A stretch of DNA of 24,511 nucleotides from an uncultured archaeon (GTDB lineage Archaea > Iainarchaeota > Iainarchaeia > Iainarchaeales > GCA-2688035), in the NCBI GenBank assembly GCA_964354805.1, contig CAYHBD010000025.1:1-24511 (forward strand), in the 5' to 3' direction. This document shows positions 945 through 24,414 of this stretch, in pieces. Under the pieces are notes generated by a model. That model made no database searches. It was given only the letters and a program-made list of their open reading frames with translations, and was not told where the DNA came from. Position numbers and translations under genes: made by a program. Positions within the stretch are counted from its first letter, which is position 1; each line of letters starts with the position of its first letter.

Positions 945-1174
945 GCTTCTTCCTCTTCATCTGAAAGCCAATCTTTTGCCAAAGCTTTTTCTGACCCCAG
1001 CATGGTAAAAAGGTTGCCCCTCAGCAGACTGTCAACTTTGGTTAGAGTAACTTTGCCTTGCTTCTCAACTAAAAGCAGTTTGCACCCTTTGATGACCCGC
1101 ATTTCATCCCTGACCTTTTTAGGCAAAACAATCTGGCCCTTTTCACTGACAGTTATTATCTCAACTTCGCTCAT
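929..1174 (-). CDS. AbrB/MazE/SpoVT-family antitoxin
   Basis: N-terminal VSEKGQIVLPKKVR AbrB motif; acidic C-terminal tail SEKALAKDWLSDEEEEAWKNL; directly upstream of mazF. Confidence 0.88.
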   Translation of the reverse strand: MSEVEIITVSEKGQIVLPKKVRDEMRVIKGCKLLLVEKQGKVTLTKVDSLLRGNLFTMLGSEKALAKDWLSDEEEEAWKNL

Positions 1175-7645: not shown

Positions 7646-7646
7646 T

Positions 7647-7721
7647 GGGGCAGTAGTATAGCTTGGTCTAGTATTCTGGCTTCGGGAGTCAGCGACGGGG
7701 GTTCAAATCCCCCCCGCCCCA
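7647..7721 (+). tRNA. tRNA-Pro(CGG), intronless, CCA not encoded
   Basis: Cloverleaf: acceptor GGGGCAG/CCGCCCC (one A-C mismatch), D stem GTAT/GTAT (two G-U pairs), anticodon stem CTGGC/GTCAG with loop TTCGGGA, T arm GGGGG-TTCAAAT-CCCCC, discriminator A. Confidence 0.93.
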
Positions 7722-7755
7722 AACCTTTTTAAACAAGTTAGCATTTAATCATTTA

Positions 7756-7812
7756 GTTTTGCGAAAGCAAAACCATTTTTACCAAGGCTTTTTTGCGAAG
7801 CAAAAAAGGCTT
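7756..7812 (+). repeat. Dispersed hairpin repeat, copy A
   Basis: GTTTTGC-GAAA-GCAAAAC followed by AAGGCTTTTTTGC-GAA-GCAAAAAAGGCTT; flanked by ATTTAATC direct repeats (7743-7750, 7814-7821). Confidence 0.85.
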
Positions 7813-7825
7813 AATTTAATCTCTG

Positions 7826-9535
7826 GTGGGGCTTTTGTCAGGGCAGGATATTTTGCGAAAGGTTATTGCTACTTCTGGCGATGAATTTTACACCCCTCTG
7901 CCAAAGGGCTATAAGGTTGGGAAAACAAAATATGTTGTAATCACAGGCAGCGTTATCAGCGGGATTGGAAAGGGGACTATTTCAAGCAGCCTGAGCAAGC
8001 TGCTGCAGGATCGAGGCCTGAATATTGAGCCAATAAAGCTCGAGGCTTATTTGAATGTTGATGCAGGAACACTGAACCCTTTCAGGCACGGCGAAGTGTT
8101 TGTTTTGGATGACGGCACTGAAACAGATTTGGATTTGGGCACTTATGAAAGGGCATTGGACAAGAATTTGGGCAGGGACAACTTTGTTACAAGCGGAGGA
8201 ATTTACGCAAACATCATTGAAAAAGAAAGGGCAGGAAAATACTTGGGAAGGGATGTGCAGTTCATTCCGCATGTTACAGGAGAAATAAAGCAGGTTGTAA
8301 GGGAGCTTGCTGTCAAAACAAAAGCAGAAGTGATTTTGATTGAAATCGGCGGCACTGTAGGAGATTACGAAAACATGTTTGCTTTGGAAGCATTGAGAGA
8401 GTTGCAGTACGAGGAAGGGCATGACAATGTCTGCTTTATTAATATCACTTATATATTGCAGCCCAGGTGCCTGGGCGAGCAGAAGAGCAAGGCTGCCCAG
8501 CTTGGAATAAAGAGGCTTATTGAGATGGGAATCCAGCCAGATATAATTGTCTGCAGGAGCGAGGGCAAGCTGCAGGAGAATATCAAGAAGAAAATCAGCC
8601 TGAATGTGAATGTTCCGATTGAAATGGTTTTTGGAGTGCATGATGTAAGCAACATTTATGGCCTGCCTCTTGCGCTCAGGAAAGTCGGCTTTGATGAGGC
8701 TGTTTTGCAGGTGTTTAAACTGAACAAGCGCTTCAAGAGCAATGGAAACAAGGCACTGAGGGAATGGAACAGGAAAACAAGCTCGCACGGAAAAGCAAAG
8801 CCTGTTACAATCGGCATTGCAGGAAAGTACACAGGCAGCGCTGACACTTACATCAGCATTCTGAAGGCTTTGGAGCATTGCAGTTTCAAGCTGAACAGAA
8901 AAGTGAAAGTGAAATGGGTTGAAACAACAGAGCTGGACAGCGGCGAGAAGGTAAAAAATGCGTTAAAGGATGTTGACGGAGTGATTGTTCCAGGCGGGTT
9001 TGGCATCAGGGGCATTGAGGGAAAGGTTGCTGTTGCAAAATACTGCAGGGAGCACGACTTGCCTTATTTGGGCCTGTGTTTGGGCTTTCAGGTTGCGTTG
9101 ATTGAGTTTGCGAGAAATGTCTGCAAATTAAAGGATGCGAACAGCACAGAGTTTGAGCCAAAAACCCAGCACCCTGTAATTGACATTCTGCCGGAGCAGA
9201 AAAAGATTGAAGGTTTGGGCGCAAATATGAGGCTTGGCGGCAGGGAGGTTGAATTGCGCGAAGGAACTCTTGCCGCAAAGCTGCACGGCAATGAAAAGAA
9301 AATCAGGAGGCGCTTTAGGCATCGCTTTGAATGCAATCCTGAGTACATTGAGCAGTTTGAAAAAGCGGGAATTGTTTTTTCGGGAAAGGCGCCGAACCAG
9401 CCGATAATGCAGGTTCTGGAGCTGCCGCAGCACAGGTTTTTCATGGCAACCCAGTTCCACCCTGAATTCACGAGCAGGCCGCTGCACCCAGACGAGCTGT
9501 TTTTGGAGTTTGTAAGAAAGAGCGCTGAGAAATAA
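7826..9535 (+). CDS. pyrG: CTP synthase with N-terminal extension
   Basis: SGIGKG, HGEVFVLDDGTETDLDLGTYER, IEIGGTVGD, PGGFG, GLCLG and FHPE motifs. The GTG start is uncertain. Confidence 0.96.
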   Translation: MGLLSGQDILRKVIATSGDEFYTPLPKGYKVGKTKYVVITGSVISGIGKGTISSSLSKLLQDRGLNIEPIKLEAYLNVDAGTLNPFRHGEVFVLDDGTETDLDLGTYERALDKNLGRDNFVTSGGIYANIIEKERAGKYLGRDVQFIPHVTGEIKQVVRELAVKTKAEVILIEIGGTVGDYENMFALEALRELQYEEGHDNVCFINITYILQPRCLGEQKSKAAQLGIKRLIEMGIQPDIIVCRSEGKLQENIKKKISLNVNVPIEMVFGVHDVSNIYGLPLALRKVGFDEAVLQVFKLNKRFKSNGNKALREWNRKTSSHGKAKPVTIGIAGKYTGSADTYISILKALEHCSFKLNRKVKVKWVETTELDSGEKVKNALKDVDGVIVPGGFGIRGIEGKVAVAKYCREHDLPYLGLCLGFQVALIEFARNVCKLKDANSTEFEPKTQHPVIDILPEQKKIEGLGANMRLGGREVELREGTLAAKLHGNEKKIRRRFRHRFECNPEYIEQFEKAGIVFSGKAPNQPIMQVLELPQHRFFMATQFHPEFTSRPLHPDELFLEFVRKSAEK

Positions 9536-9553
9536 AAAAAGCAATTTTATTTT

Positions 9554-9730
9554 TTATTTTAATTTTTCCGCTTCTTCCACAAGCATTATCGGAATCCCGT
9601 CTTCAATGCGATAAGCGAGCCTGCATTTGCCGCAAACCAGTTTTTGCCCTGCTTTTTTGTAAGCCAAATCGCCCTTGCATTTTGGGCATGCAAGCACATC
9701 CAGAAGCTTTTTGCTCAATTCCTTTGGCAT
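9554..9730 (-). CDS. Trm112/YcaR-family zinc-binding protein, 58 aa (absent from ORF track)
   Basis: Manual translation: MPKELSKKLLDVLACPKCKGDLAYKKAGQKLVCGKCRLAYRIEDGIPIMLVEEAEKLK. Has LACP.CKG, a second CxxC and Y.I.DGIP.ML. Confidence 0.93.
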   Translation of the reverse strand: MPKELSKKLLDVLACPKCKGDLAYKKAGQKLVCGKCRLAYRIEDGIPIMLVEEAEKLK

Positions 9731-9793
9731 AGCGAAAACCTTAGCTATAATTTAAGGCAAAACAGTTTTAAATCAAACATTCTTAGCCATAAT

Positions 9794-9844
9794 GCTTTGC
9801 CGAAGGCAATTTTTCCCAAGGCTTTTTCCGAAGGAAAAAGGCTT
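9794..9844 (+). repeat. Dispersed hairpin repeat, copy B
   Basis: TTGCC-GAA-GGCAA followed by AAGGCTTTTTCC-GAA-GGAAAAAGGCTT. Confidence 0.85.
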
Positions 9845-9887
9845 TGTAAAAGGATTTTTAATTAAATGTTTCCTTTTTCTCTTTTAA

Positions 9888-11054
9888 TTGAAGGGATTCT
9901 GTTTGTTTGTTGAAAAAGTTGATGCTGCCGGCAAGCGGATTGTTTTGGTTGGCACTGCCCATGTGAGCAAGGAAAGCGTTGCTCTGGTCAAGGCTACAAT
10001 CGAAAAGGAGAAGCCTGACGCTGTAGGCGTTGAACTGGATGGGCAGAGGCTGCACCAGCTGCAGCACGGAAAGCAGTGGCAGGAAATGGATTTGCAGCAG
10101 ATAATAAAGCAGGGGAAAACCCATCTCTTTTTGGTGAACCTGCTGCTCTCTAATCTGCAGAGGCAGATCGGCGATGACTTGGGCATAAAGCCTGGCAGCG
10201 AAATGCTGGCTGCAGTGCAGATTGCGGAAGAAAAGAAAATCCCGATTGTTTTGCTTGACAGGGAGGTAAGGGTGACACTGAAAAGGGCATTGAACAAAAT
10301 GGGCTTGAGGGAAAAGGCAAAGCTTGGCTACGGGATTTTAAGCGGTTTTTTGGGGGTAAGCGAAAAGCTTGATGAGAAAACAATCGAGAGCCTGAAAGAA
10401 AAGGATGCCTTGAATCTGCTGATGCAGCAGCTTGCAAAAGAAATGCCTTCGGTAAAAGAAGTGCTGGTTGATGAAAGGGACTTGTTTATCGCAAACAAAA
10501 TTCTGCAGGCCAAGGGAAAAAAGATTGTTGCTGTAATTGGAGCTGGGCATTTGGAGGGGGTAAAGCGCTTTTTGGACAAGGAGCGGAACATAAGCGGGCT
10601 TGCAATGGTTGAGCAAAAAAAAAGCAGTCTGCGCTTTTTGAAATACGCTATTCCAGCATTGTTTGTTGTTTTGGTTGGCTATGCATTTTATGCAAAGGGC
10701 GCTGCCGTTACATTAAACATTTTCATTTCATGGTTTCTGATAACAGGAACATTGTCAGCGCTTGGCGCAGCCCTTGCAGCAGCCCATCCTCTTTCAATTG
10801 CAACAGCTTTTCTTGCTGCCCCCTTTACCACGCTGCATCCAGCGCTTGCAGCAGGCTGGTTCGCTGGCCTGGCTGAATTGAAAGTGAGAAGCCCAAAGGT
10901 AAAAGATTTTGAGCAACTGCCGCAGATTGACGGCGTGAGGCAGCTGCTAAAAAACAGGGTTGCAAGAATAGTAATGGTCACTGCTTTTGCAAACATTGGC
11001 GCGAGCATTGGAACAATAATCGCCCTGCCATACATTGCGAGCCTGCTAAGCTGA
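9888..11054 (+). CDS. TraB/PrgY (TraB/GumN) family protein with C-terminal TM helices
   Basis: LVGTAHVS, VGVELD, PGSEM, LVDERD, GAGH and PFTTLHP motifs. The true start may be TTG at 9903. Confidence 0.9.
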   Translation: MKGFCLFVEKVDAAGKRIVLVGTAHVSKESVALVKATIEKEKPDAVGVELDGQRLHQLQHGKQWQEMDLQQIIKQGKTHLFLVNLLLSNLQRQIGDDLGIKPGSEMLAAVQIAEEKKIPIVLLDREVRVTLKRALNKMGLREKAKLGYGILSGFLGVSEKLDEKTIESLKEKDALNLLMQQLAKEMPSVKEVLVDERDLFIANKILQAKGKKIVAVIGAGHLEGVKRFLDKERNISGLAMVEQKKSSLRFLKYAIPALFVVLVGYAFYAKGAAVTLNIFISWFLITGTLSALGAALAAAHPLSIATAFLAAPFTTLHPALAAGWFAGLAELKVRSPKVKDFEQLPQIDGVRQLLKNRVARIVMVTAFANIGASIGTIIALPYIASLLS

Positions 11055-11117
11055 ATTCTGTAAGCTGCGTTCAAATTTTATTGCTTGCAATCTTGCAAGG
11101 CTTGCAGATTGGCTGAA

Positions 11118-11450
11118 CTATCTTATTGGCGTTCCGGGCGGCACGTCTTTGTCAACACATAAAAGAATAGGTTGCCCGTTCAAGTCAGCTGCCAGCAGCA
11201 TTCCGTTGCTTTCAATGCCTGCAATTTTTGCTGGCGCGAGGTTGCTTACTACAACAATTGTTTTCCCCACAAGCTGCTCTACGCTGTAATGCGGTTTCAA
11301 GCCTGCCACAAGAGTTCGCGGCTGCTGCTCGCCTACATCAATCTCCAACTTGAACAGCTTGTCTTTTCCTGCAATGTTCTCAGCTTTCAAAACCTTTGCT
11401 GCCCTCAATTCAATTTTCTGGAATTCTTGGAAAGAAATCAAAGCTATCAC
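11118..11450 (-). CDS. Stand-alone tRNA-binding OB-fold (MetG C-terminal/Trbp111/CsaA)
   Basis: F.KIELR, DKL..L.ID.G, NL.P.KIAG.ESNGMLLAA motifs. Likely start is TTG at 11441 after AGGTGA. Confidence 0.92.
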   Translation of the reverse strand: MIALISFQEFQKIELRAAKVLKAENIAGKDKLFKLEIDVGEQQPRTLVAGLKPHYSVEQLVGKTIVVVSNLAPAKIAGIESNGMLLAADLNGQPILLCVDKDVPPGTPIR

Positions 11451-11893
11451 CTTAAACAGGATTTTTGGTATGCAACATCCTGAGTTGCGACATCATGGGT
11501 TATATCAACAATGGCTGCGTCATCATTAAAATCCTTTATCTCTTTGGGGCTGATTGCAAGGGTTTTCTCTTCCCCCACCAAGCAGTGCACTTGCTGCGCC
11601 TGCAAAACCTTTTTGTCAATCAGAGCCATTACCCCGAAAATTGAAACAGGCGGCAGGAACCTGGCAGCATAGCCTGTTATTTCATAAACAATTGCATTCT
11701 CAACAGGCTTGATTGCATCAGAGGCAGTTGCCTTGCGCAATTTTTGCTTTGCTATGCTGTCTGACGCAAAAAAAATCACAAGAAAAAAAGAATCGCCAGC
11801 GGAAAAAAGCCTGCACCGGATTAAATTTTTCCTTGCAGCAAAAGGCAGAATTTTTGCCCGCAGCCCATTTGCCTCAATAAAGTCTTGAAGCAT
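11447..11893 (-). CDS. Degenerate YbaK/EbsC (aminoacyl-tRNA editing)-like protein
   Basis: EITGY....LPP, IDKKVL and TLAISPKEI resemble YbaK. ATG at 11893 is preferred because the longer frame runs through AT-rich promoter-like DNA. Confidence 0.7.
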   Translation of the reverse strand: MLQDFIEANGLRAKILPFAARKNLIRCRLFSAGDSFFLVIFFASDSIAKQKLRKATASDAIKPVENAIVYEITGYAARFLPPVSIFGVMALIDKKVLQAQQVHCLVGEEKTLAISPKEIKDFNDDAAIVDITHDVATQDVAYQKSCLR

Positions 11894-11914
11894 TGCCCAA
11901 CGCCATTTATTATA

Positions 11915-12004
11915 ATATAGCAAACTGCTTATATTTTTGAACTTTTTATTGCAGTTTGCTATATGCAAAAAGCAATTTAATGTTCATTATTTAGGCTTTT
12001 TGCA
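11915..12004. repeat. Two adjacent perfect inverted repeats in the metK-ybaK spacer
   Basis: ATATAGCAAACTGC(11915-11928)/GCAGTTTGCTATAT(11951-11964) and TGCAAAAAGC(11964-11973)/GCTTTTTGCA(11995-12004). Confidence 0.8.
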
Positions 12005-12044
12005 ATAGAATAAAATATATAAAAGAAATAAAAAGAGACGGGCT

Positions 12045-13205
12045 TTAAAGTCCGCATTCTTTTTTCAGCATTGCAGCCTTGTCCGTTTTCTCCCAGGTGA
12101 AGTCCGGATCATTCCTTCCGAAGTGCCCGTAGTTTGTTGTTTTGCTAAAAATCGGCCTTCTCAGGTTCAGTTCCTCAATCATTTCTCCAGGCGCGAAATG
12201 AAAATGCTTTTTTACAGCATCATAGATTTTCATTGGCTCAACCTTGTTTGTGCCATGCGTGTCAATGAAAAGGCTCAATGGCTCTGTTCCGCCAATCACG
12301 AAAGAGAGCTGTACCTCGCACCTGTCAGCAAGGCCTGCTGCAACAATGTTTTTCGCAATATACCTTGCGTAATAAGCAGCTGTCCTGTCAACCTTGCTCG
12401 GGTCTTTTCCACTAAAAGCCCCTCCGCCATGGTTGCCTACTCCGCCATAAGTGTCCTGGATTATTTTCCTTCCTGTGCAGCCGCTGTCTGCAACAGGTCC
12501 GCCTAAAACAAATCTCCCTGTGTTGTTAATGTAGTATTTTGTATCCTTGTCCAGCATTTTGCCGCAGACTGGCTCAATCACGTGCTTTTTTATTTCCTCT
12601 CTTAATTTTTCCATCTCAACATCTGGATCGTGCTGTGCAGCAATTACAACGCTGTCAATCCTTTTTGGCTTGTCTTTTTCATATTCAACTGTCACCTGTG
12701 TTTTTCCGTCAGGCCTCAGGAATTTCAGCGTTCCATCCTTCCTTACCTCCATCAGCCTTTTTGCAAGCCTGTGGGCAAGCAGAATAGGCAGTGGCATTAA
12801 TTCAAGGGTTTCATTTGTTGCATAGCCTGACATCATTCCCTGGTCGCCTGCGCCAACCTCTTTCGGCGATTTTTTTGTCACGCCCATGCTTATGTCAGGG
12901 CTCTGCTCGTGGATTGCTGTAAGGACACCAACTGTCCTGTAATCAAAGCCGTATTCAGGCTTTGCATAGCCAACATCCCGCAAGACATCCCTGACTGTCT
13001 TCTGCACATCAATGTATGTTTTTGTAGTTACTTCGCCTGTTACAACAATGAAGCCCATTCCAGCCAGTACCTCGCAGGCAACCCTTGCAGAAGGGTCGTC
13101 TTTTATTATGGAATCCAGAATCCTGTCGGCAATCTGGTCGCATACCTTGTCAGGATGACCCTCAGTCATTGCCTCTGAAGTGAACAAAAATTTCCCGCTT
13201 CTCAT
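12045..13205 (-). CDS. metK: S-adenosylmethionine synthetase, bacterial/eukaryotic type
   Basis: [29 protein letters not shown] and [15 protein letters not shown] motifs. Confidence 0.97.
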
Positions 13206-13288
13206 TTATGCATCAACTCCCTAGAGTAAAATAAGTATTTAGAAAAAAGAAAGTAGATTATGTTTTTAATTAATTGCAAAATGCCCTA

Positions 13289-13308
13289 ATTATTCCGATT
13301 GGAATAAT
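13289..13308. promoter_or_regulatory. Palindromic operator candidate between metK and the HTH-CBS gene
   Basis: ATTATTCC-GATT-GGAATAAT, a 20-bp sequence one base from a perfect palindrome. Confidence 0.7.
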
Positions 13309-13333
13309 AATAAAAATGTTTGGCAGCAAATTG

Positions 13334-13400
13334 AATTGATTATGCTTCCTGATTTAAAGGAAAAAAAACAGCGGGGTTAATTGATTATGCTTCCTGATTT
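13334..13400 (+). repeat. 22-nt direct repeat duplicating the regulator gene start
   Basis: AATTGATTATGCTTCCTGATTT at 13334-13355 and 13379-13400. Confidence 0.9.
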
Positions 13401-13944
13401 GATGGAAATAAAGGCAAGGAGGATTGCCGCTGGCTTAACGCAGAGCAGGTTGAGCGAATTAAGCGGAGTTTCGCAGAGCCTGATTGCAAAGATTGAGGCT
13501 GAAAAGATTGAGCCAAGCTATGCAAAGGTGAAAAAGCTGCTTGACTGCCTGACCCAATTGCATGCGCAGCTGGAAAAGCAGGCAAAAGACATTATGACAA
13601 AGCCTGTTGTGAGTGTTGAATCAAATGACTACCTGCGCCAGGCAATAAAGCTGCTTGAAAGGCACGGCCTGAGCCAGCTGCCTGTTTTAAGCAAGGGAAA
13701 AGCTGTTGGCTGCATTTCAGAGAAAAGCGTTCTGGCGAAAATAAACAACGCGCCTGGCATTGATGCCGAAAAGGCCAGGGCCGAAGAGGCAATGGAGGAA
13801 GCCCTGCCCACAATCCAGCCAAACACCCCTGTTTCAGCAGTCTCGCAGCTGCTTGGATTCAATTCTGCAGTGCTGGTTGCAAGAAAAGGAAAAATCATTG
13901 GCATAATAACAAAATCGGATTTGCTGAAGCAGATGATAAAATGA
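13387..13944 (+). CDS. XRE-type HTH plus tandem CBS domain transcriptional regulator
   Basis: GLTQSRLSELSGVSQSLIAKIE HTH; AKDIMT..V, SQLPV and GIITKSD CBS motifs. Start is ATG 13387 or TTG 13381. Confidence 0.92.
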   Translation: MLPDLMEIKARRIAAGLTQSRLSELSGVSQSLIAKIEAEKIEPSYAKVKKLLDCLTQLHAQLEKQAKDIMTKPVVSVESNDYLRQAIKLLERHGLSQLPVLSKGKAVGCISEKSVLAKINNAPGIDAEKARAEEAMEEALPTIQPNTPVSAVSQLLGFNSAVLVARKGKIIGIITKSDLLKQMIK

Positions 13945-13953
13945 TTGAATGTA

Positions 13954-14211
13954 TCATTGCTTATATCTAATTTTAATATACAACATAACAACTGTGGCAA
14001 TAAAAGCAAATCCGTCCATGGCAATGATTGGATTGCTGCTGATTGCAATGCCGTAAATTATCCAAAGAAACTCGCCTGCTACAAGAATTAACAGCATTAA
14101 GAGAGAAATGTCCGCAACTTTTTTTGTTCTAAGCGACTTAACAATCTGTGGAACGATGCTCACTGAAATCAAAATTCCAGCCAAAAACCCAATGATATCC
14201 ACCATTGTCAT
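13954..14211 (-). CDS. SemiSWEET (PQ-loop) sugar transporter
   Basis: Three TM helices; PQIVKSLRTK..DIS, LW..YG and PII motifs. GGTGA ribosome-binding site before ATG 14211. Confidence 0.88.
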   Translation of the reverse strand: MTMVDIIGFLAGILISVSIVPQIVKSLRTKKVADISLLMLLILVAGEFLWIIYGIAISSNPIIAMDGFAFIATVVMLYIKIRYKQ

Positions 14212-14282
14212 ATCTTCAATCACCATGTATGAATACTTAATCAAAGTGTATAAATATTTCCAACCTTGCCCAAAGAATCCGA

Positions 14283-14300
14283 AAACGATAACTTTTTATA
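14283..14300 (+). promoter_or_regulatory. BRE/TATA-like promoter of the surface-protein operon
   Basis: An A-rich stretch followed by TTTTTATA, about 90 nt upstream of GTG 14393. Confidence 0.4.
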
Positions 14301-14392
14301 GAATGTATGGGGCAAGTATATATAACAAGACAAAGTGAATCAGTTAATACATAACGCTGATACATAATGTCTTGTTTTTGGTGGGGATTTTA

Positions 14393-14926
14393 GTGAAAAA
14401 AAGCATTTATGCCTTGGCCTTGTTCCTTTTATTGTTTAGTGCCAGCTGCCAGGCGCTAATTGTTAATGAAATAGGCACTATTGTGGTGCAGCAGGATGAA
14501 AGAAGCGTTGATGTTAAAATAAAAAACGATTCTGATGAAACGCAGGATTTCACTATTGAATTGAGCATTCCAAACGCATCAATTGACCCAAGCGAGGGTA
14601 GCCTGGAAGCAGGGGAAAGCATTACAGCAAGCCTTTCAATAATTCCAACTGAGGATTTTGCTGGCTCAACCTATTCAGGGCAATTGAGGGTTTCAATTGG
14701 CGAGGAGCAGGAAAGAAGGGAAATAAAAGTAATGTTCAAGGAAAAACAAGTTGAAAAGCCGGCTGAAGAGCCGGAACAGCCAGTTCCTGCTGGTTTCTTT
14801 GCATTGCCTGACCTTTCAGCTTTTTTTACAGCTGAGAATGCGCTGAACATTGTTCTTGCAATTGTCGCAGCAATTCTGCTGATTGCTTTTATTGCAAGAC
14901 TTGTTAAAAGGCTGGAGGCGAAGTGA
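14393..14926 (+). CDS. Secreted, C-terminally membrane-anchored Ig-like surface protein
   Basis: Signal peptide after GTG 14393 (preceded by GGTGGGGA), beta-rich acidic domain, P/E linker, TM helix and basic tail. Confidence 0.8.
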   Translation: MKKSIYALALFLLLFSASCQALIVNEIGTIVVQQDERSVDVKIKNDSDETQDFTIELSIPNASIDPSEGSLEAGESITASLSIIPTEDFAGSTYSGQLRVSIGEEQERREIKVMFKEKQVEKPAEEPEQPVPAGFFALPDLSAFFTAENALNIVLAIVAAILLIAFIARLVKRLEAK

Positions 14927-16852
14927 ATGAAGGCATGGATTGCATCAATTCAGCCTTTTGCTTTGCAAAAGCCTTTTTGCTTCGCAAAAAGCCTTGGGAA
15001 ACTTTGCCTTCGGCAAAAGCCTGGGAAAAAAACAGCAATTGCATCAGTCGCTTTTGTTCTGCTTTTGATTGCGTCAGGCGCTTATGCGCAGATTTCCTTG
15101 ACACCGAGCATCAAGCAGGTGTATGTATCAAGGAATGATTCAATCGGATTGCAGTTCCAGCTGAAAAATTTAGGCAGCAATGAAACATGCATTACACTTT
15201 CAACAGACCAGAATGATGCTTACATTGAAACAGATTTGAGCGCTGACCAAATTTGTTTGAATGAAGGTGAATCAACAAATGCAACTCTTTCAATTAGAAC
15301 AGTGAATGCGCCGAAAGGCTTGCATAGTGTAACGCTGCTATGCCAATCAGGCAATGGCGACGCAAATGCAGTTGTTTCAGTCTATGCAGCAGAAGAGCCC
15401 GAAATTGAGTTAGTTGCTTATCCGAATGATGTTTGCAGCAGCAGGGAAGAGCAATTGAATGTTTTGGTTAGAAATAACAGTGATGAATTCAAGCAGGTGC
15501 AGCTGCAGGCTGAGAATGAAATGCTTTTGCCTTTCTTCAAGCCAAGCAGCCTAAGCCTGCTGCCACACCAGGAAAGGTATGTTAAATTGGTTGCTGCTGC
15601 TTCGCCTTCTTTGGATGAAGAAGAATACACTGTGAGCATGTATGCAATAACAGGCGATGAAACTGTTAAGGAAACGGTTGAATTAAGGGTTGTTGATTGC
15701 GATGAAGAGGAAACCGGCTTTTCTTTGAAAGTGCCAAGCGGTTGCATTTCAGTTGAAAAGGAAAAGGACAGGAAGGTTTTCTTTTCAGTGAAAAACGAGA
15801 AACAGGATGAGCAGCTGCTTGAGTTTTCCGTAAGCGACGAGCTGCCTGTGGCACTGCAGACAGACAGCGCCTGGCTTGAAGCAGGCATTGAAAGGCAGTT
15901 TTATTTTACTGTAAACATTCCGGCTGATTCAGCTGTAAAAGACTATAATTTGAGCATTTCAGTTTCAAACAACGGGCATTCAATTGAGAAAGGCGTCTGC
16001 ATCAGGCCACAGAAAATTCATTTGACTTATGTAACAGTGCAGGGAAACGATTTTGGCATTGCTGAATGCGGCTCCGCTGTTTTCAAAATACTGCTCGAAA
16101 ACGGCGGGGATTACAGCGAAAGATTCCAATTGAGCCTGGTAAATGACAATGAGGATGCGGCAGATGCCGTTCTTTCTGAAAAAGATGTAACAGTTGAAAA
16201 GCACGGCAGCAAAACTGTTTTCGTGAACGTAAGCGCTTTGCAAGAGGCAGAGCTCGGCGATTACGAGATTGAATTGAGTGTTAAAACAGCAGCAAAAACA
16301 TTTGAGGAAGAGCTGCGCTTTTCAATTGAGGGCGAAGAAGAACCTGTTGAGCCAGAATTGCCAGGGCTTGAAATTGCAAGCTATCCAAGCGCAATAACAA
16401 TGGACGAAAACAGCGAAAAATCAGTGTTTGTTTCAATCAGGAACAACAGCGAGAAAACAATTGAAGGCATTTTAATTAAATTAATCAGCCTGCCTGCCGG
16501 CATAACAGCAACAAAGGAAAGCGAAATTTCCCTCGAAGCAGGGGAAGAGCAGCAGTTTGAATTGATTTTGAATACGGCAGCAGGAACAGCAGGCGAGCAC
16601 AGCATTAGCGTAAGCGCGAAAAATGCAGATTACAGCGCCGCTAAAACAATAAGGCTGATTGTTGAGAAAAAAGAGGAAGCGGCAGAGCAACAGCAGGCGC
16701 CTGCATTTGCCGGATTTGCCAGCCTGCTTGCAGCAGGGGGCAGCGCATTGCTCGGCCTGGCTGCATTGATTATTCTTGTGACTGTTATTGTTTTAATTGC
16801 AAAGGCAGCGGCAAGCCCAACACAAATAAAAAAAGAAGTGTGGATGAAATAA
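14927..16852 (+). CDS. Multi-Ig-like-domain acidic surface protein with C-terminal TM helix
   Basis: Repeated ~100-aa units with (L/V)xN...L..GE/H patterns, a signal peptide interrupted by a repeat insertion, and a C-terminal TM helix. Confidence 0.82.
   Translation: MKAWIASIQPFALQKPFCFAKSLGKLCLRQKPGKKTAIASVAFVLLLIASGAYAQISLTPSIKQVYVSRNDSIGLQFQLKNLGSNETCITLSTDQNDAYIETDLSADQICLNEGESTNATLSIRTVNAPKGLHSVTLLCQSGNGDANAVVSVYAAEEPEIELVAYPNDVCSSREEQLNVLVRNNSDEFKQVQLQAENEMLLPFFKPSSLSLLPHQERYVKLVAAASPSLDEEEYTVSMYAITGDETVKETVELRVVDCDEEETGFSLKVPSGCISVEKEKDRKVFFSVKNEKQDEQLLEFSVSDELPVALQTDSAWLEAGIERQFYFTVNIPADSAVKDYNLSISVSNNGHSIEKGVCIRPQKIHLTYVTVQGNDFGIAECGSAVFKILLENGGDYSERFQLSLVNDNEDAADAVLSEKDVTVEKHGSKTVFVNVSALQEAELGDYEIELSVKTAAKTFEEELRFSIEGEEEPVEPELPGLEIASYPSAITMDENSEKSVFVSIRNNSEKTIEGILIKLISLPAGITATKESEISLEAGEEQQFELILNTAAGTAGEHSISVSAKNADYSAAKTIRLIVEKKEEAAEQQQAPAFAGFASLLAAGGSALLGLAALIILVTVIVLIAKAAASPTQIKKEVWMK
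14948..15037 (-). mobile_element. Dispersed hairpin repeat, copy C, inserted in-frame in a coding sequence
   Basis: Minus strand reads TTTGCC-GAA-GGCAAA..CCCAAGGCTTTTTGC-GAA-GCAAAAAGGCTT. Flanked by ATTGCATCA direct repeats at 14939-14947 and 15038-15046. Mobility is inferred. Confidence 0.75.
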
Positions 16853-16948
16853 TTGAATGAACAGGCACTTAGCAGTCCCAACACTTGTTAAAAAAGCATG
16901 GGCAAAATAATAATTGAATTAACAAAAAATCGTGGGGTGATTGTTTAA

Positions 16949-19210
16949 ATGAATAAGGTAATTATTCCAATTTGTTTTGTTTTGCTGCTTCTTGCGAGCG
17001 CAGCGAACGCAGTAAAGCTTACCGGCACTTTTTCCCTGAGCACTGACTGCTTTACTCCGGCAAAAGCAACATACCTTCTTTCAAACGACAGCAGCACAGC
17101 GCAGACATTTACAATAAAAGCAACTGGCGCAAACAGCGACTGGATTTCCCTAAACGGCGTGCAAATAGGGGAAACACCACTTTCAATTGCAGTTGCAGCA
17201 AACAGCAGCGTGGAATTATATGCTTTTGTAAAGCCCCAAGCATGCTATATCGCGCCAGGCGATTATACTATTACAATTGAAATAAGCAATGGCGGGAAAA
17301 CAACAAAGGAAATAAAGGTAACAGTCACTGAAAGCAGGGCACTTGAGCTTTCCATAACGCCGAGCAAGCAGCAGGCAGCGCAGTGCGAGCAAAAGCAGTT
17401 TGAGATATCTGTAAAAAACACGGGAAAAAGAAGCGAACAGGTTATTTTAAGCGTTGAACAACTGCCTTGGCAGTGGGCCAAGCTTTCTGTGAACGAGCTT
17501 AATTTAGAAAAAGGGGAAACAAAAAAAGCAATTGTCTCAGTTCAGCCCGCATGCAATGCGGCATTGAAAGAATATGCTTTTTCAGTAAAGGCCACAATTG
17601 CAGGCACAACATTTGCAACAGCAAAAAATGCATCAATTGAAATAGCAGACAAGCAGATGATTCAAATCAGCGCCGAGGCAATGAGGGCTTGCGCTGACAA
17701 AAAAACAACCAGCCCAGTCAAAATAAAGAACAACGGCCTGCAGCAGGACGAATTGCAGTTAACAGCAAGCGGCTTGGATTTCGTGAGCATTGAGCCACCA
17801 ACAACAGTAACCCTTGCAGCAGGCGAGGAAAAAGAGGTTACACTTTCATTTGATAAAACATCAAAAACACAGGGAAGATACGATTTCACGCTGAAAGCCC
17901 ATTCAACGAAATTTGAAAAAGACACTGAAAAGAAATTTTCGCTTGAGCTGAGAAACTGCTACAATCTTTCAATAACAAACGCATTGCTCAATGGAGCAAC
18001 AGCAACCGCCAACCCAACATTATGCATTGAAAGCGAGCCAGTGTACAAGCTCACTTTAAAGAATAATTCAGTTGAGGCAGTAAATGCAGCAATAAGGGCA
18101 ACAGGCATTGACGCAGTCATTTCTCCATCACAAGTGTCAATCGAAAGCGGCAAAAGCATTGATGTAACAGTCAAGCTTGATTTGCAAAACCAATTGCCCG
18201 GGGAAAAACAATTCAGCCTGCAGGCAAGCAGCGACAATTTTTCATTGCAAAGGGACTTCAACCTTGCTTTGGAATACTGCTTTAACCTGCAGATAGCCTG
18301 GCCGCTTCCGGACCTGGTTGAATTGGATGCAAACTGCAAAAGCGAATTATTCACCGTGAACATAAAAAATGCCGGCACAAAAGAGCAGGAGATTGCTGTA
18401 AGCGTAACAGGCCCTGAATGGGTTTTTCTGGAGCCAACAACGGCAAAGCTTTTGCCAAGCGAGCAGAAAGCGCATTATCTATACTTTGCGCCGCCTTCCG
18501 ATGTAAAAGCAGGGGCATACAGCGCGATCTTTACAATAAAGGGCGCTGAAACATTCGAAAAGAAAATCGAAATTAAAGTGAAGGCAGCGCAGGAGCAGCC
18601 GGCAGAACCGGAAAAGCCGGCTGCACCGGAAAAGCCCACAGAGCCAGAGAAGCCCGTTGAAAAACCAAGCATTAAAACAGCAATCGCCAGGCAGCAGGTT
18701 GTTGAAACAGTTGAGAAAAGCATTAAGGTAACAGTGCTTATTTCAAACGACAGCAATACTGCGCTGAAGGTAAGCAAAATAACTGTAGTTGACATGGACA
18801 ATGCATTGATTGATTTCAGTGAAACAACATTGCAGCCTGATGGGAATATTGAGGTGCCAATCACTTTGTTCATTGAACCTGATGCCAATAAGCAGCAAAT
18901 CAGCGTTCCATTGTTGTTCAGCACTGACAAGGGTGAGATTGCAAGCGTTTTGTTCATTGATTTGAACAAGGGGGCAGAGCAAATTGCATCAGTCGGCTTG
19001 TTCGGCTTGTCTGATTTGGGCAACACAATCTTTTTCGGCTTGATTGCAATCGTTATTGTAGTGATTGCAGCGATTGCAATAAGGCAGGGTAGCGGCGGAA
19101 AAAAAAGCGGCCTAGCTGAATTGGCGGAAGAGGTTGAAGAACTGCCTGCAAAAAAGCTTGAAGAAATCGGCGGCGTGAGAAAAGCGAGAAAGCCGAGGAA
19201 GAAGGCTTGA
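16949..19210 (+). CDS. Multi-Ig-like-domain surface protein with Pro-rich linker and C-terminal TM helix
   Basis: GGGGTGA ribosome-binding site, signal peptide, repeated VKNTG/IKNNG/IKNAG units with Cys at domain borders, TM helix and charged tail. Confidence 0.85.
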   Translation: MNKVIIPICFVLLLLASAANAVKLTGTFSLSTDCFTPAKATYLLSNDSSTAQTFTIKATGANSDWISLNGVQIGETPLSIAVAANSSVELYAFVKPQACYIAPGDYTITIEISNGGKTTKEIKVTVTESRALELSITPSKQQAAQCEQKQFEISVKNTGKRSEQVILSVEQLPWQWAKLSVNELNLEKGETKKAIVSVQPACNAALKEYAFSVKATIAGTTFATAKNASIEIADKQMIQISAEAMRACADKKTTSPVKIKNNGLQQDELQLTASGLDFVSIEPPTTVTLAAGEEKEVTLSFDKTSKTQGRYDFTLKAHSTKFEKDTEKKFSLELRNCYNLSITNALLNGATATANPTLCIESEPVYKLTLKNNSVEAVNAAIRATGIDAVISPSQVSIESGKSIDVTVKLDLQNQLPGEKQFSLQASSDNFSLQRDFNLALEYCFNLQIAWPLPDLVELDANCKSELFTVNIKNAGTKEQEIAVSVTGPEWVFLEPTTAKLLPSEQKAHYLYFAPPSDVKAGAYSAIFTIKGAETFEKKIEIKVKAAQEQPAEPEKPAAPEKPTEPEKPVEKPSIKTAIARQQVVETVEKSIKVTVLISNDSNTALKVSKITVVDMDNALIDFSETTLQPDGNIEVPITLFIEPDANKQQISVPLLFSTDKGEIASVLFIDLNKGAEQIASVGLFGLSDLGNTIFFGLIAIVIVVIAAIAIRQGSGGKKSGLAELAEEVEELPAKKLEEIGGVRKARKPRKKA
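18598..18666 (+). repeat. Coding tandem repeat PxxPEK (18-nt period)
   Basis: Encodes PAEPEKPAAPEKPTEPEKPVEKP. Confidence 0.7.
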
Positions 19211-24361: not shown

Positions 24362-24414
24362 ATTTTGCCGAAAATCAAGCCTTTTTAATTGTTTTACCTA
24401 TCCTATAATTGGGT

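Follow-up and report, generated by a model that had tools for sequence, protein, structure and literature searches.

The hairpins dispersed along the 24,511-nucleotide stretch analysed here (the window), which is contig C25 (CAYHBD010000025.1) of an uncultured iainarchaeotal assembly (GCA_964354805.1, hereafter G000), are copies of a short repeat, and all three copies in the window, together with five insertions inside protein-coding genes of the same genome, are shown by comparison with relatives in which the orthologous sites are empty to be inserted DNA. Our best explanation, held with about even confidence, is that they form a non-coding, non-autonomous mobile mini-repeat of a single family within the Iainarchaeota (DPANN) that, we infer, is copied by the replication or repair machinery of the host and spreads via template switching. 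A preliminary description of the window had taken the hairpins for a REP/MITE-like element recognised as folded single-stranded DNA (REP, repetitive extragenic palindromic; MITE, miniature inverted-repeat transposable element). This is partly supported, being right in kind and wrong or incomplete in respect of a GAA loop, a link to HUH transposases, target duplications and a supposed relic. The G000 assembly is 1.38 Mb, 44% G+C and 88.5% complete; it and the other G-numbered genomes mentioned below are incomplete metagenome-assembled genomes (MAGs), and C numbers are contigs of G000.

The three window copies are found again, at the places and with the architecture first given to them, by a covariance model trained on eight copies of the repeat, with scores of 60.0 bits (copy A), 58.8 bits (copy B) and 55.2 bits (the inner unit of copy C), E being about 1e-13 for all three and no other match in the window exceeding 25 bits. 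Copy A (7756..7812, +) comprises a cap hairpin GTTTTGC-GAAA-GCAAAAC (7756-7773), a pyrimidine tract CATTTTTA followed by CC (7774-7783) and a long hairpin AAGGC-T6-GCGAAGC-A6-GGCTT (7784-7812). Copy B (9797..9844, +) has the same three parts, namely a cap TTGCC-GAA-GGCAA (9797-9809), a tract TTTTTC and CC (9810-9817) and a long hairpin AAGGC-T5-CCGAAGG-A5-GGCTT (9818-9844). Copy C lies on the minus strand and is a full unit nested in the top of a second one: the inner unit (14969..15012) has a cap GCC-GAA-GGC, a tract AAAGTTTC with CC and a long hairpin AAGGC-T5-GCGAAGC-A5-GGCTT (14997-14969), and it splits an outer unit T7-CCCAGGC-TTTT-GC ... GC-AAAA-GGCTG (14951..15033) by an insert of 48 nt with GGCTTTTGC as junction repeat. 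The 9-bp direct repeat GGCTTTTGC noticed earlier at copy C (15021-15013 and 14973-14965, −) does exist, though as a product of this nesting of one unit in the top of another. The closest full-length relative of the inner unit is copy B (44/48 identical). A strict form of the motif gave no matches in 100 shuffles, and an Rfam search of the window matched tRNA only and left the repeat unmatched. As single-stranded DNA the sense strand of copy A folds with −18 kcal/mol (z −6.1), and z is −2.5 for copy B and −2.6 for copy C, the folding programs used counting Watson-Crick pairs only. Next in score within the window come reverse-strand echoes and a weak hit at 969-1015 (+), which at 21.8 bits (CCAAAGC-T5 ... 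A5-GG-TT), without a stable fold and within the open reading frame (ORF) 929-1174, is treated as a chance match or a decayed copy. The relic proposed at 24363-24386 did not survive: the model finds nothing there at E <= 10, and the sequence lacks a stable fold (z +0.6).

Copy A lies in the spacer between a tRNA-Pro(CGG) gene (7646..7722, +) and pyrG, an arrangement whose synteny is conserved in the family. The spacer is syntenic in several relatives and holds a conserved stretch CTTTTTAAAC ... ATTTAATCATTTAG, of which CTTTTTAAAC (7725..7734, +) is a TATA-like box of pyrG that recurs, with the sequence following it, in G009, G007, G003, G010 and G012. The element sits 34 nt past the tRNA, between the conserved TATA region and the GTG start of pyrG, and adds 57 nt to the pyrG leader; the spacers of G007, G003, G010, G012 and G004 are without it. 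Since it stands downstream of the TATA-like box, copy A is probably transcribed as part of the pyrG leader, and pyrG is the only CTP synthase gene found in the G000 assembly with the query used. The 8-bp direct repeat ATTTAATC said to bracket copy A (7743-7750 and 7814-7821, +) is present, its left copy being displaced by 5 nt from the element; that left copy belongs to the conserved promoter-proximal sequence and the right one is specific to G000. Occupancy of this neighbourhood varies among relatives: G001 carries two tandem copies upstream of the pyrG box, its congener G012 has none, and G009 has a single copy behind a different tRNA. The orthologous tRNA-Pro(CGG) gene itself has an intron of 111 nt in G004 (L207) and of 78 nt in G012 (L217) and none in G000, so that the presence of tRNA introns is polymorphic within the family.

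Copy B is placed by a conserved 58-residue Zn-ribbon gene (MPKELSKKLLDVLACPKCKG...; 9554-9730, −) which intervenes between pyrG and traB and is easily missed with a long-ORF cut-off. Because of this gene the copy belongs to a divergent promoter spacer ahead of traB (9888, +) and not to the 3' end of pyrG. The spacer ...ATAATGCTTTGC|AAAAGGATTTTTAATTAAAT is continuous in G016, G004, G006 and G022 and is split in G000 by an inserted stretch of 47 nt (9801-9847), with a junction repeat GCTTTG (9794-9799 and 9841-9846). A promoter segment of about 43 nt is tandemly duplicated here (9738..9872, +), the first copy being 9738-9780 and the second, from 9781, bearing the element. Copy C has gone into a gene. 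The reading frame of a 641-aa secreted protein (ORF 14927-16852, +) runs antisense across the whole array, which supplies residues about 8-33; the frame remains open across the nested units as far back as the ATG at 14927, and about 31 residues are gained ahead of the signal peptide. In 11 orthologs of this surface protein M-K/N-x is followed directly by the signal peptide, and the nearest 400 nt are free of the element. The stretch 14372-19210 codes for three consecutive secreted proteins with Ig-like folds (FixG_C, NPCBM_assoc and CARDB-type domains), all of which have a signal peptide and, at the C-terminus, a hydrophobic anchor, which is typical DPANN surface-protein content.

Five further empty sites come from conserved protein genes outside the window, where the inserts are all multiples of 3 nt (45, 45, 54, 54 and about 90) and open in frame, four of them lying antisense and reading K-P-F ... 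K-S/A-L/W-G-K. The Elp3 gene (C16:62953-64638) holds two antisense copies, each of 45 nt and each a clean insertion of 15 residues; both are lacking in 21/21 orthologs of the family and in the sequence of the Methanocaldococcus infernus structure (PDB 6iaz). IleRS and Dus each carry an insertion of 54 nt (18 residues), missing from 20 and 13 orthologs respectively, and a DHH phosphoesterase has about 30 extra residues (~90 nt, two sense units) that are not in five relatives. Coding insertion is claimed only for these five cases, which were compared with orthologs. The repeat has no stop codons in most frames, and gene callers consequently over-extend N-termini through it; our own calls in G000 (longest ORF plus codon score) are crude and over-extended at their starts in the same way, so that the 28 copies scored as genic are an upper bound. 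Neither the in-frame coding insertions nor the occupancy of tRNA introns, to which we now turn, figured in the preliminary description.

ARAGORN reports 23 tRNA genes in G000, 11 of them with introns of 18-161 nt, and probably misses several others owing to long or non-canonical introns. Among the 73 clean copies of the repeat in G000, by which we mean matches to a simple pattern (model hits are counted separately), five lie within four tRNA introns, all of them antisense, and two others, in sense orientation, follow tRNA genes at distances of 47 and 60 nt. In the tRNA sense, the element opens the introns of Leu-GAG, Ser-GGA, Val-GAC, Pro-GGG and Arg-GCG immediately behind position 37, and further introns carry variants with other bases. 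At least five introns beginning in this way could mean that the repeat is a bulge-helix-bulge mini-intron which the tRNA splicing endonuclease removes from every place of insertion, protein genes included. We regard this as very unlikely, since the five coding inserts keep the frame as multiples of 3, mRNA folds around four of them have no bulge-helix-bulge across the borders, and the element-bearing tRNA introns end with a separate tail of 9-11 nt that is complementary to the anticodon region, which makes the element look like a passenger in the intron.

Placement elsewhere bears on whether the repeat is abundant through usefulness to the host, as an oligo-T terminator, an RNA-stabilising triple helix or a protein-binding site, and not through movement. 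There are T5-6 runs on both strands, archaeal RNA polymerase terminates at oligo-T, the two sense copies mentioned stand just behind tRNA genes, and T-rich or TATA-like sequence follows many copies. Yet 11 clean copies lie between divergent genes, with 4 between convergent and 27 between co-directional ones, and in the co-directional gaps 13 copies follow the orientation of the genes and 14 oppose it, with no bias; by position and orientation, then, the copies are not terminators. Nor are those in the window confined to transcript 3' ends, copy A belonging to a 5' leader, copy B to a divergent promoter spacer and copy C to N-terminal coding sequence. With copies also in tRNA introns and coding sequences, with orthologous sites empty even at essential genes, and with a copy number running from 0 to 118 across the family, a host-selected signal appears unlikely. 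As a side observation, a segment of about 45 nt, CAAGCTAAAGAATATTTGTTTTTTGTTTCATTGCTTGGCATTGTG, precedes six copies in G000 (C16:138560-138604, C16:62854-62898, C16:93052-93096, C30:59538-59582, C8:42355-42399 and C10:20005-20049); in reverse complement it looks like the start of a conserved gene, its hairpin GCTTGGCA/TGCCAAGC shares bases with the CCAAGGC of the element, and the six may mark a family of paralogous genes in whose leaders the repeat has become fixed.

The repeat unit, 45-60 nt long, may carry a small cap hairpin at its start; its other parts are a pyrimidine tract T4-7 C with CC after it and a long hairpin of the plan xyGGC-Tn-(free stem and loop)-An-GGCy'x'. What is conserved is the T4-7-C tract, the CC, the base xy-GGC ... 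GGC-y'x' and the equal length of the T and A runs, while the hairpin tops vary freely and stay paired, with 53 different inner sequences among the 73 clean copies. Across 104 distinct copies drawn from G000 and related genomes 99.2% of stem cells are paired and 9/12 stem pairs are altered on both sides. Compensatory cells number 100 against 25 +/- 3 in shuffles, of which 0/500 reach 100, and controls with slid alignments collapse, which bears out the covarying stems first noticed in the window. The outer two base pairs take the forms AA/TT, CA/TG, TG/CA and AG/CT, and the G.G mismatch that was earlier called invariant is kept in 104/106 copies. The upper stem holds steady at 6-8 pairs, because the length of the T run trades off against that of the inner stem. 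Caps and long hairpins recombine freely, a single cap TTGCAATTGC-GAA-GCAATTGC being found ahead of six different tops. The C-GAA-G loop, by contrast, is common to the three window copies alone, GAA occurring in just 10/73 loops genome-wide; what is conserved is the 5' pyrimidine tract together with the hairpin base and its G.G mismatch, and not a GAA mini-hairpin.

That tract mirrors the 5' arm of the long hairpin, a relation missed in the preliminary description, and the sense strand can for this reason fold into an intrastrand Hoogsteen-pyrimidine-purine triplex. A fold-back triple helix is accordingly possible as far as base order goes, and would in the terms of Holder et al. be of class IV on the sense strand and of class II (purine motif) on the complement. 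A tract C stands opposite an arm G at 31/63 positions and opposite an arm A at 37/536, an odds ratio of 13 whose p-value overstates the significance, the copies being related. The total match between arm and tract is 442, compared with 408 +/- 6 when tracts are swapped between copies (2000 permutations, the highest reaching 432). In asymmetric variants arm and tract agree when read in parallel (AAAGAAAAGG with TTTCTTTTCC, AAAAGAAAGG with TTTTCTTTCC, GAGAAAAGG with CTCTTTTCC and AAGAAAAAAGG with TTCTTTTTTCC), which is the orientation needed by a pyrimidine-motif triplex, and the opposite strand reads AAAGAAAA and then AAAAGAAA. The unit is thus built of three consecutive blocks, the third able to pair with the purine arm by (reverse) Hoogsteen rules.

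The scan of the genome and of relatives found many further copies, as befits a dispersed, structure-defined, REP/MITE-like element. In G000 the covariance model gives 105 hits, or roughly 95 loci once reverse-strand echoes are removed, and a 15-mer signature TTYCCCAAGGCTTTT occurs 50 times. In a set of 215 genomes from the phylum, multiple copies of the 15-mer characterise the window's own family alone, where 17/22 other members have from 1 to 118 copies (the maximum being in G016); several signature hits lie <100 nt from contig ends, which makes the counts lower bounds. In other families of the order 30 genomes have 1-6 copies, and it is absent from 19/19 genomes of other orders; a reversed control pattern gave 2 hits in the 215 genomes. 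Public records with several copies of an 18-mer signature are Candidatus Iainarchaeum or archaeal MAGs, and bacterial records have it in single, chance-level hits, so the signature is confined to the Iainarchaeota. A viral reservoir was not found in IMG/VR, which gave 10 single 17-mer hits and only one weak model match among them. Some copies are young, the hairpin and tract at Elp3 site 1 being 36/36 identical to C9:67103-67138 and copies B and C agreeing at the 44/48 positions given above. Every array is direct and repeats at intervals of 50-80 nt; of neighbours no more than 120 nt apart, 7 pairs share an orientation and 0 are inverted.

The junctions of the insertions are of unequal length. 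Their repeats measure about 1-3 nt (IleRS), 4 (Elp3 site 1), 3-6 (Dus) and 6 (copy B), and in the longer cases 8 (copy A, displaced), 9 (copy C) and 12 nt (Elp3 site 2), where the empty site in the closest relative already agreed with 10/12 junction bases. Most are GC-T2-4-GC or AAAAGGCTK, that is the 3' end of the element itself and the start of the next cap hairpin. The flanking repeats are therefore not target duplications of fixed length, as had been supposed, and the fixed-length, element-unrelated duplication that marks a MITE moved by a DDE-type enzyme is not what is seen here. No longer autonomous parent with shared terminal inverted repeats turned up among the genome-wide hits in G000 (88.5% complete), and excision footprints in the form of a solo CCAAGGCTT gave nothing interpretable, the heptamer having 251 other occurrences. 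Variable self-derived junctions, direct arrays and recombination between caps and hairpins together fit microhomology-guided template switching better than cut-and-paste with a fixed stagger.

It is nevertheless possible, if to our minds not probable, that the same mobile repeat is moved in trans by an enzyme which recognises the folded base (CC-xy-GGC / GGC-y'x' with its G.G) in single-stranded DNA, the candidates being a RAYT-like HUH protein, a tyrosine recombinase that treats it like the attC hairpins of integrons, or some other nuclease. The extreme conservation of base, mismatch and 5' tract beside a freely varying top speaks for it, this being the pattern of REP/RAYT and attC/IntI substrates, as does a preference of insertions for sites like GC-T2-4-GC. 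Two tyrosine recombinase genes are found in G000, one likely XerA and the other integrase-like and 221 nt from a copy; this second ORF (C10:30692-31153, −, 435 aa) has a weak Pfam match and is followed by a tRNA-like-looking sequence, and its region may be an integrated element. The link to an HUH transposase that the preliminary description had raised fares less well. G000 has two Y1 genes, both of IS200/IS605 type and at contig ends (C35:572-1015, −; C13:1268-1786, +); their GC-rich end hairpins (GGGCGGGG / CCGCACCC) bear no relation to the repeat, of which there is no copy nearby, and over 23 genomes of the family the number of Y1 genes does not track that of copies (rho 0.22, p 0.31): G001 has 27 signature hits and 0 Y1 genes, G004 has 7 Y1 genes and 2 hits. 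Inverted doublets of the REPIN kind were not found, no gene was seen with copies on both flanks, the junction repeats vary in length, and neither a reverse transcriptase nor TnpB was found in G000.

In the reading we prefer, copying by host replication and repair, a folded hairpin or triplex would stall or break replication, its G.G mismatch being of a type known as a preferred substrate of the archaeal mismatch endonuclease EndoMS/NucS, which G000 encodes. The nascent strand would then switch template by microhomology between an existing copy and a site that resembles the end of the element (GC-T2-4-GC, AAAGGCTK), and the switch would add one unit flanked by a variable repeat of the end motif, sometimes together with a local duplication. 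Selection would afterwards filter the insertions, such that inside genes only multiples of 3 bases survive, and in tRNA introns and at most coding sites only the antisense orientation, the RNA of which cannot form the triplex; the antisense bias at these sites may reflect selection against an RNA triplex and a double U-run. Quasi-palindrome correction would also keep the hairpin tops perfectly paired without selection. EndoMS cleaves both strands, three bonds to the 5' side of a mismatch, and favours G/T, G/G and T/T while barely acting on C/C (PMC4838380), and on that preference only the hairpin of the strand with G.G would be a substrate. It is conceivable, though rather unlikely, that EndoMS/NucS is recruited to the G.G of a hairpin-triplex at the fork and that the break is repaired by template switching into look-alike sites, which would amount to transposition with neither an element-encoded nor a dedicated enzyme, seeding the cores of tRNA introns and loops of 15-18 residues in essential enzymes.

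Several points weigh against this picture. The mechanism is pieced together from its products, no intermediate having been seen, and the dated insertions number about 8, with ancestral sequences inferred from orthologs that are 60-88% identical. A base and a G.G mismatch that stay near-invariant across genera (~60-85% identity of orthologous proteins) suggest sequence-specific recognition by a protein, and a passive process that needs no recognition has here a clear weakness; the genomes are moreover incomplete, leaving room for a missing enzyme gene. Relatives lacking the repeat encode NucS as well, and in some repeat-bearing genomes it was not found; since it is widespread in the order regardless of the repeat, its presence or absence is uninformative as a predictor. 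As to the triplex, the lengths of T run and third strand are only weakly correlated in the plain T-run (main) subfamily (rho 0.23), and among distinct interrupted patterns of arm and third strand 7 interruption positions match and 5 do not.

Quasi-palindrome template-switch mutagenesis and microhomology-mediated templated insertion are established in bacteria and eukaryotes, and they resemble what is seen here in perfecting hairpin arms without selection and in producing variable-microhomology insertions with local duplications. They differ in being general mutational processes with no repeat family, and they leave unexplained how the G.G escapes correction. Among described repeats the closest are the bacterial intrastrand-triplex repeats and the in-frame palindromic elements of Rickettsia, and the archaeal repeat is a member of neither. 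The former, BoxC / PIT / TM-ECO (Holder et al. 2015, PMC4666352), are likewise short and multi-copy, with three consecutive blocks forming a hairpin and a third tract able to bind its purine arm, variable loops, a link to local sequence rearrangement and no enzyme assigned. In contrast to TM-ECO, which is G/C-rich, class II, intergenic and bacterial, the archaeal repeat is A/T-rich (T.A-T with one or two C+.G-C), would be of class IV in sense and class II on the other strand, has an extra lower stem of 5 positions with a fixed G.G, and occurs also in tRNA introns and in frame in genes.

The Rickettsia palindromic elements (RPE; reviewed in PMC10969869) are palindromes in frame in unrelated housekeeping genes that add a conserved peptide and keep the reading frame, with no transposase known for either group; insertion in frame into conserved protein genes and absence from orthologs is equally what was found in our five cases. 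RPE are bacterial and about 100-150 bp, whereas the archaeal units are 45-54 nt (15-18 residues) with a hypervariable top, tandem arrays and nested copies, and membership was rejected on the size of the unit, the lack of an Rfam match and the restriction of the signature to the Iainarchaeota. With REP/REPIN-RAYT systems the repeat shares short imperfect palindromes, a conserved single-stranded 5' flank, compensatory stem changes and tens to hundreds of dispersed copies, and in these traits it answers to the REP type. It differs in having direct arrays and in not being limited to extragenic DNA, and it was not assigned to these systems, no RAYT flanked by the repeat being found and close pairs being direct as given above. 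The likeness to integron attC sites (hairpins defined by structure, of variable sequence and length, with a conserved base and unpaired or mismatched bases) would be one of substrate logic only, there being no cassette gene, integron integrase or attI platform. A search of the literature, within the library covered, gave no description of such a repeat in Iainarchaeota or DPANN, nor of archaeal in-frame palindromic elements.

Small palindromic repeats are known in bacteria, and how those without a transposase move is a long-standing question. The present family offers for it dated insertions in conserved genes with clean empty sites, and a three-strand covariation signal, as well as a fixed mismatch suggesting an enzyme that could be tested. 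It also has practical consequences, in that assemblies break at the repeat. Overall it is of interest that about 100 copies are still tolerated by genomes of ~1.4 Mb that undergo strong reduction, including inserts in Elp3, IleRS and Dus, in the pyrG leader and at the first base of tRNA introns.

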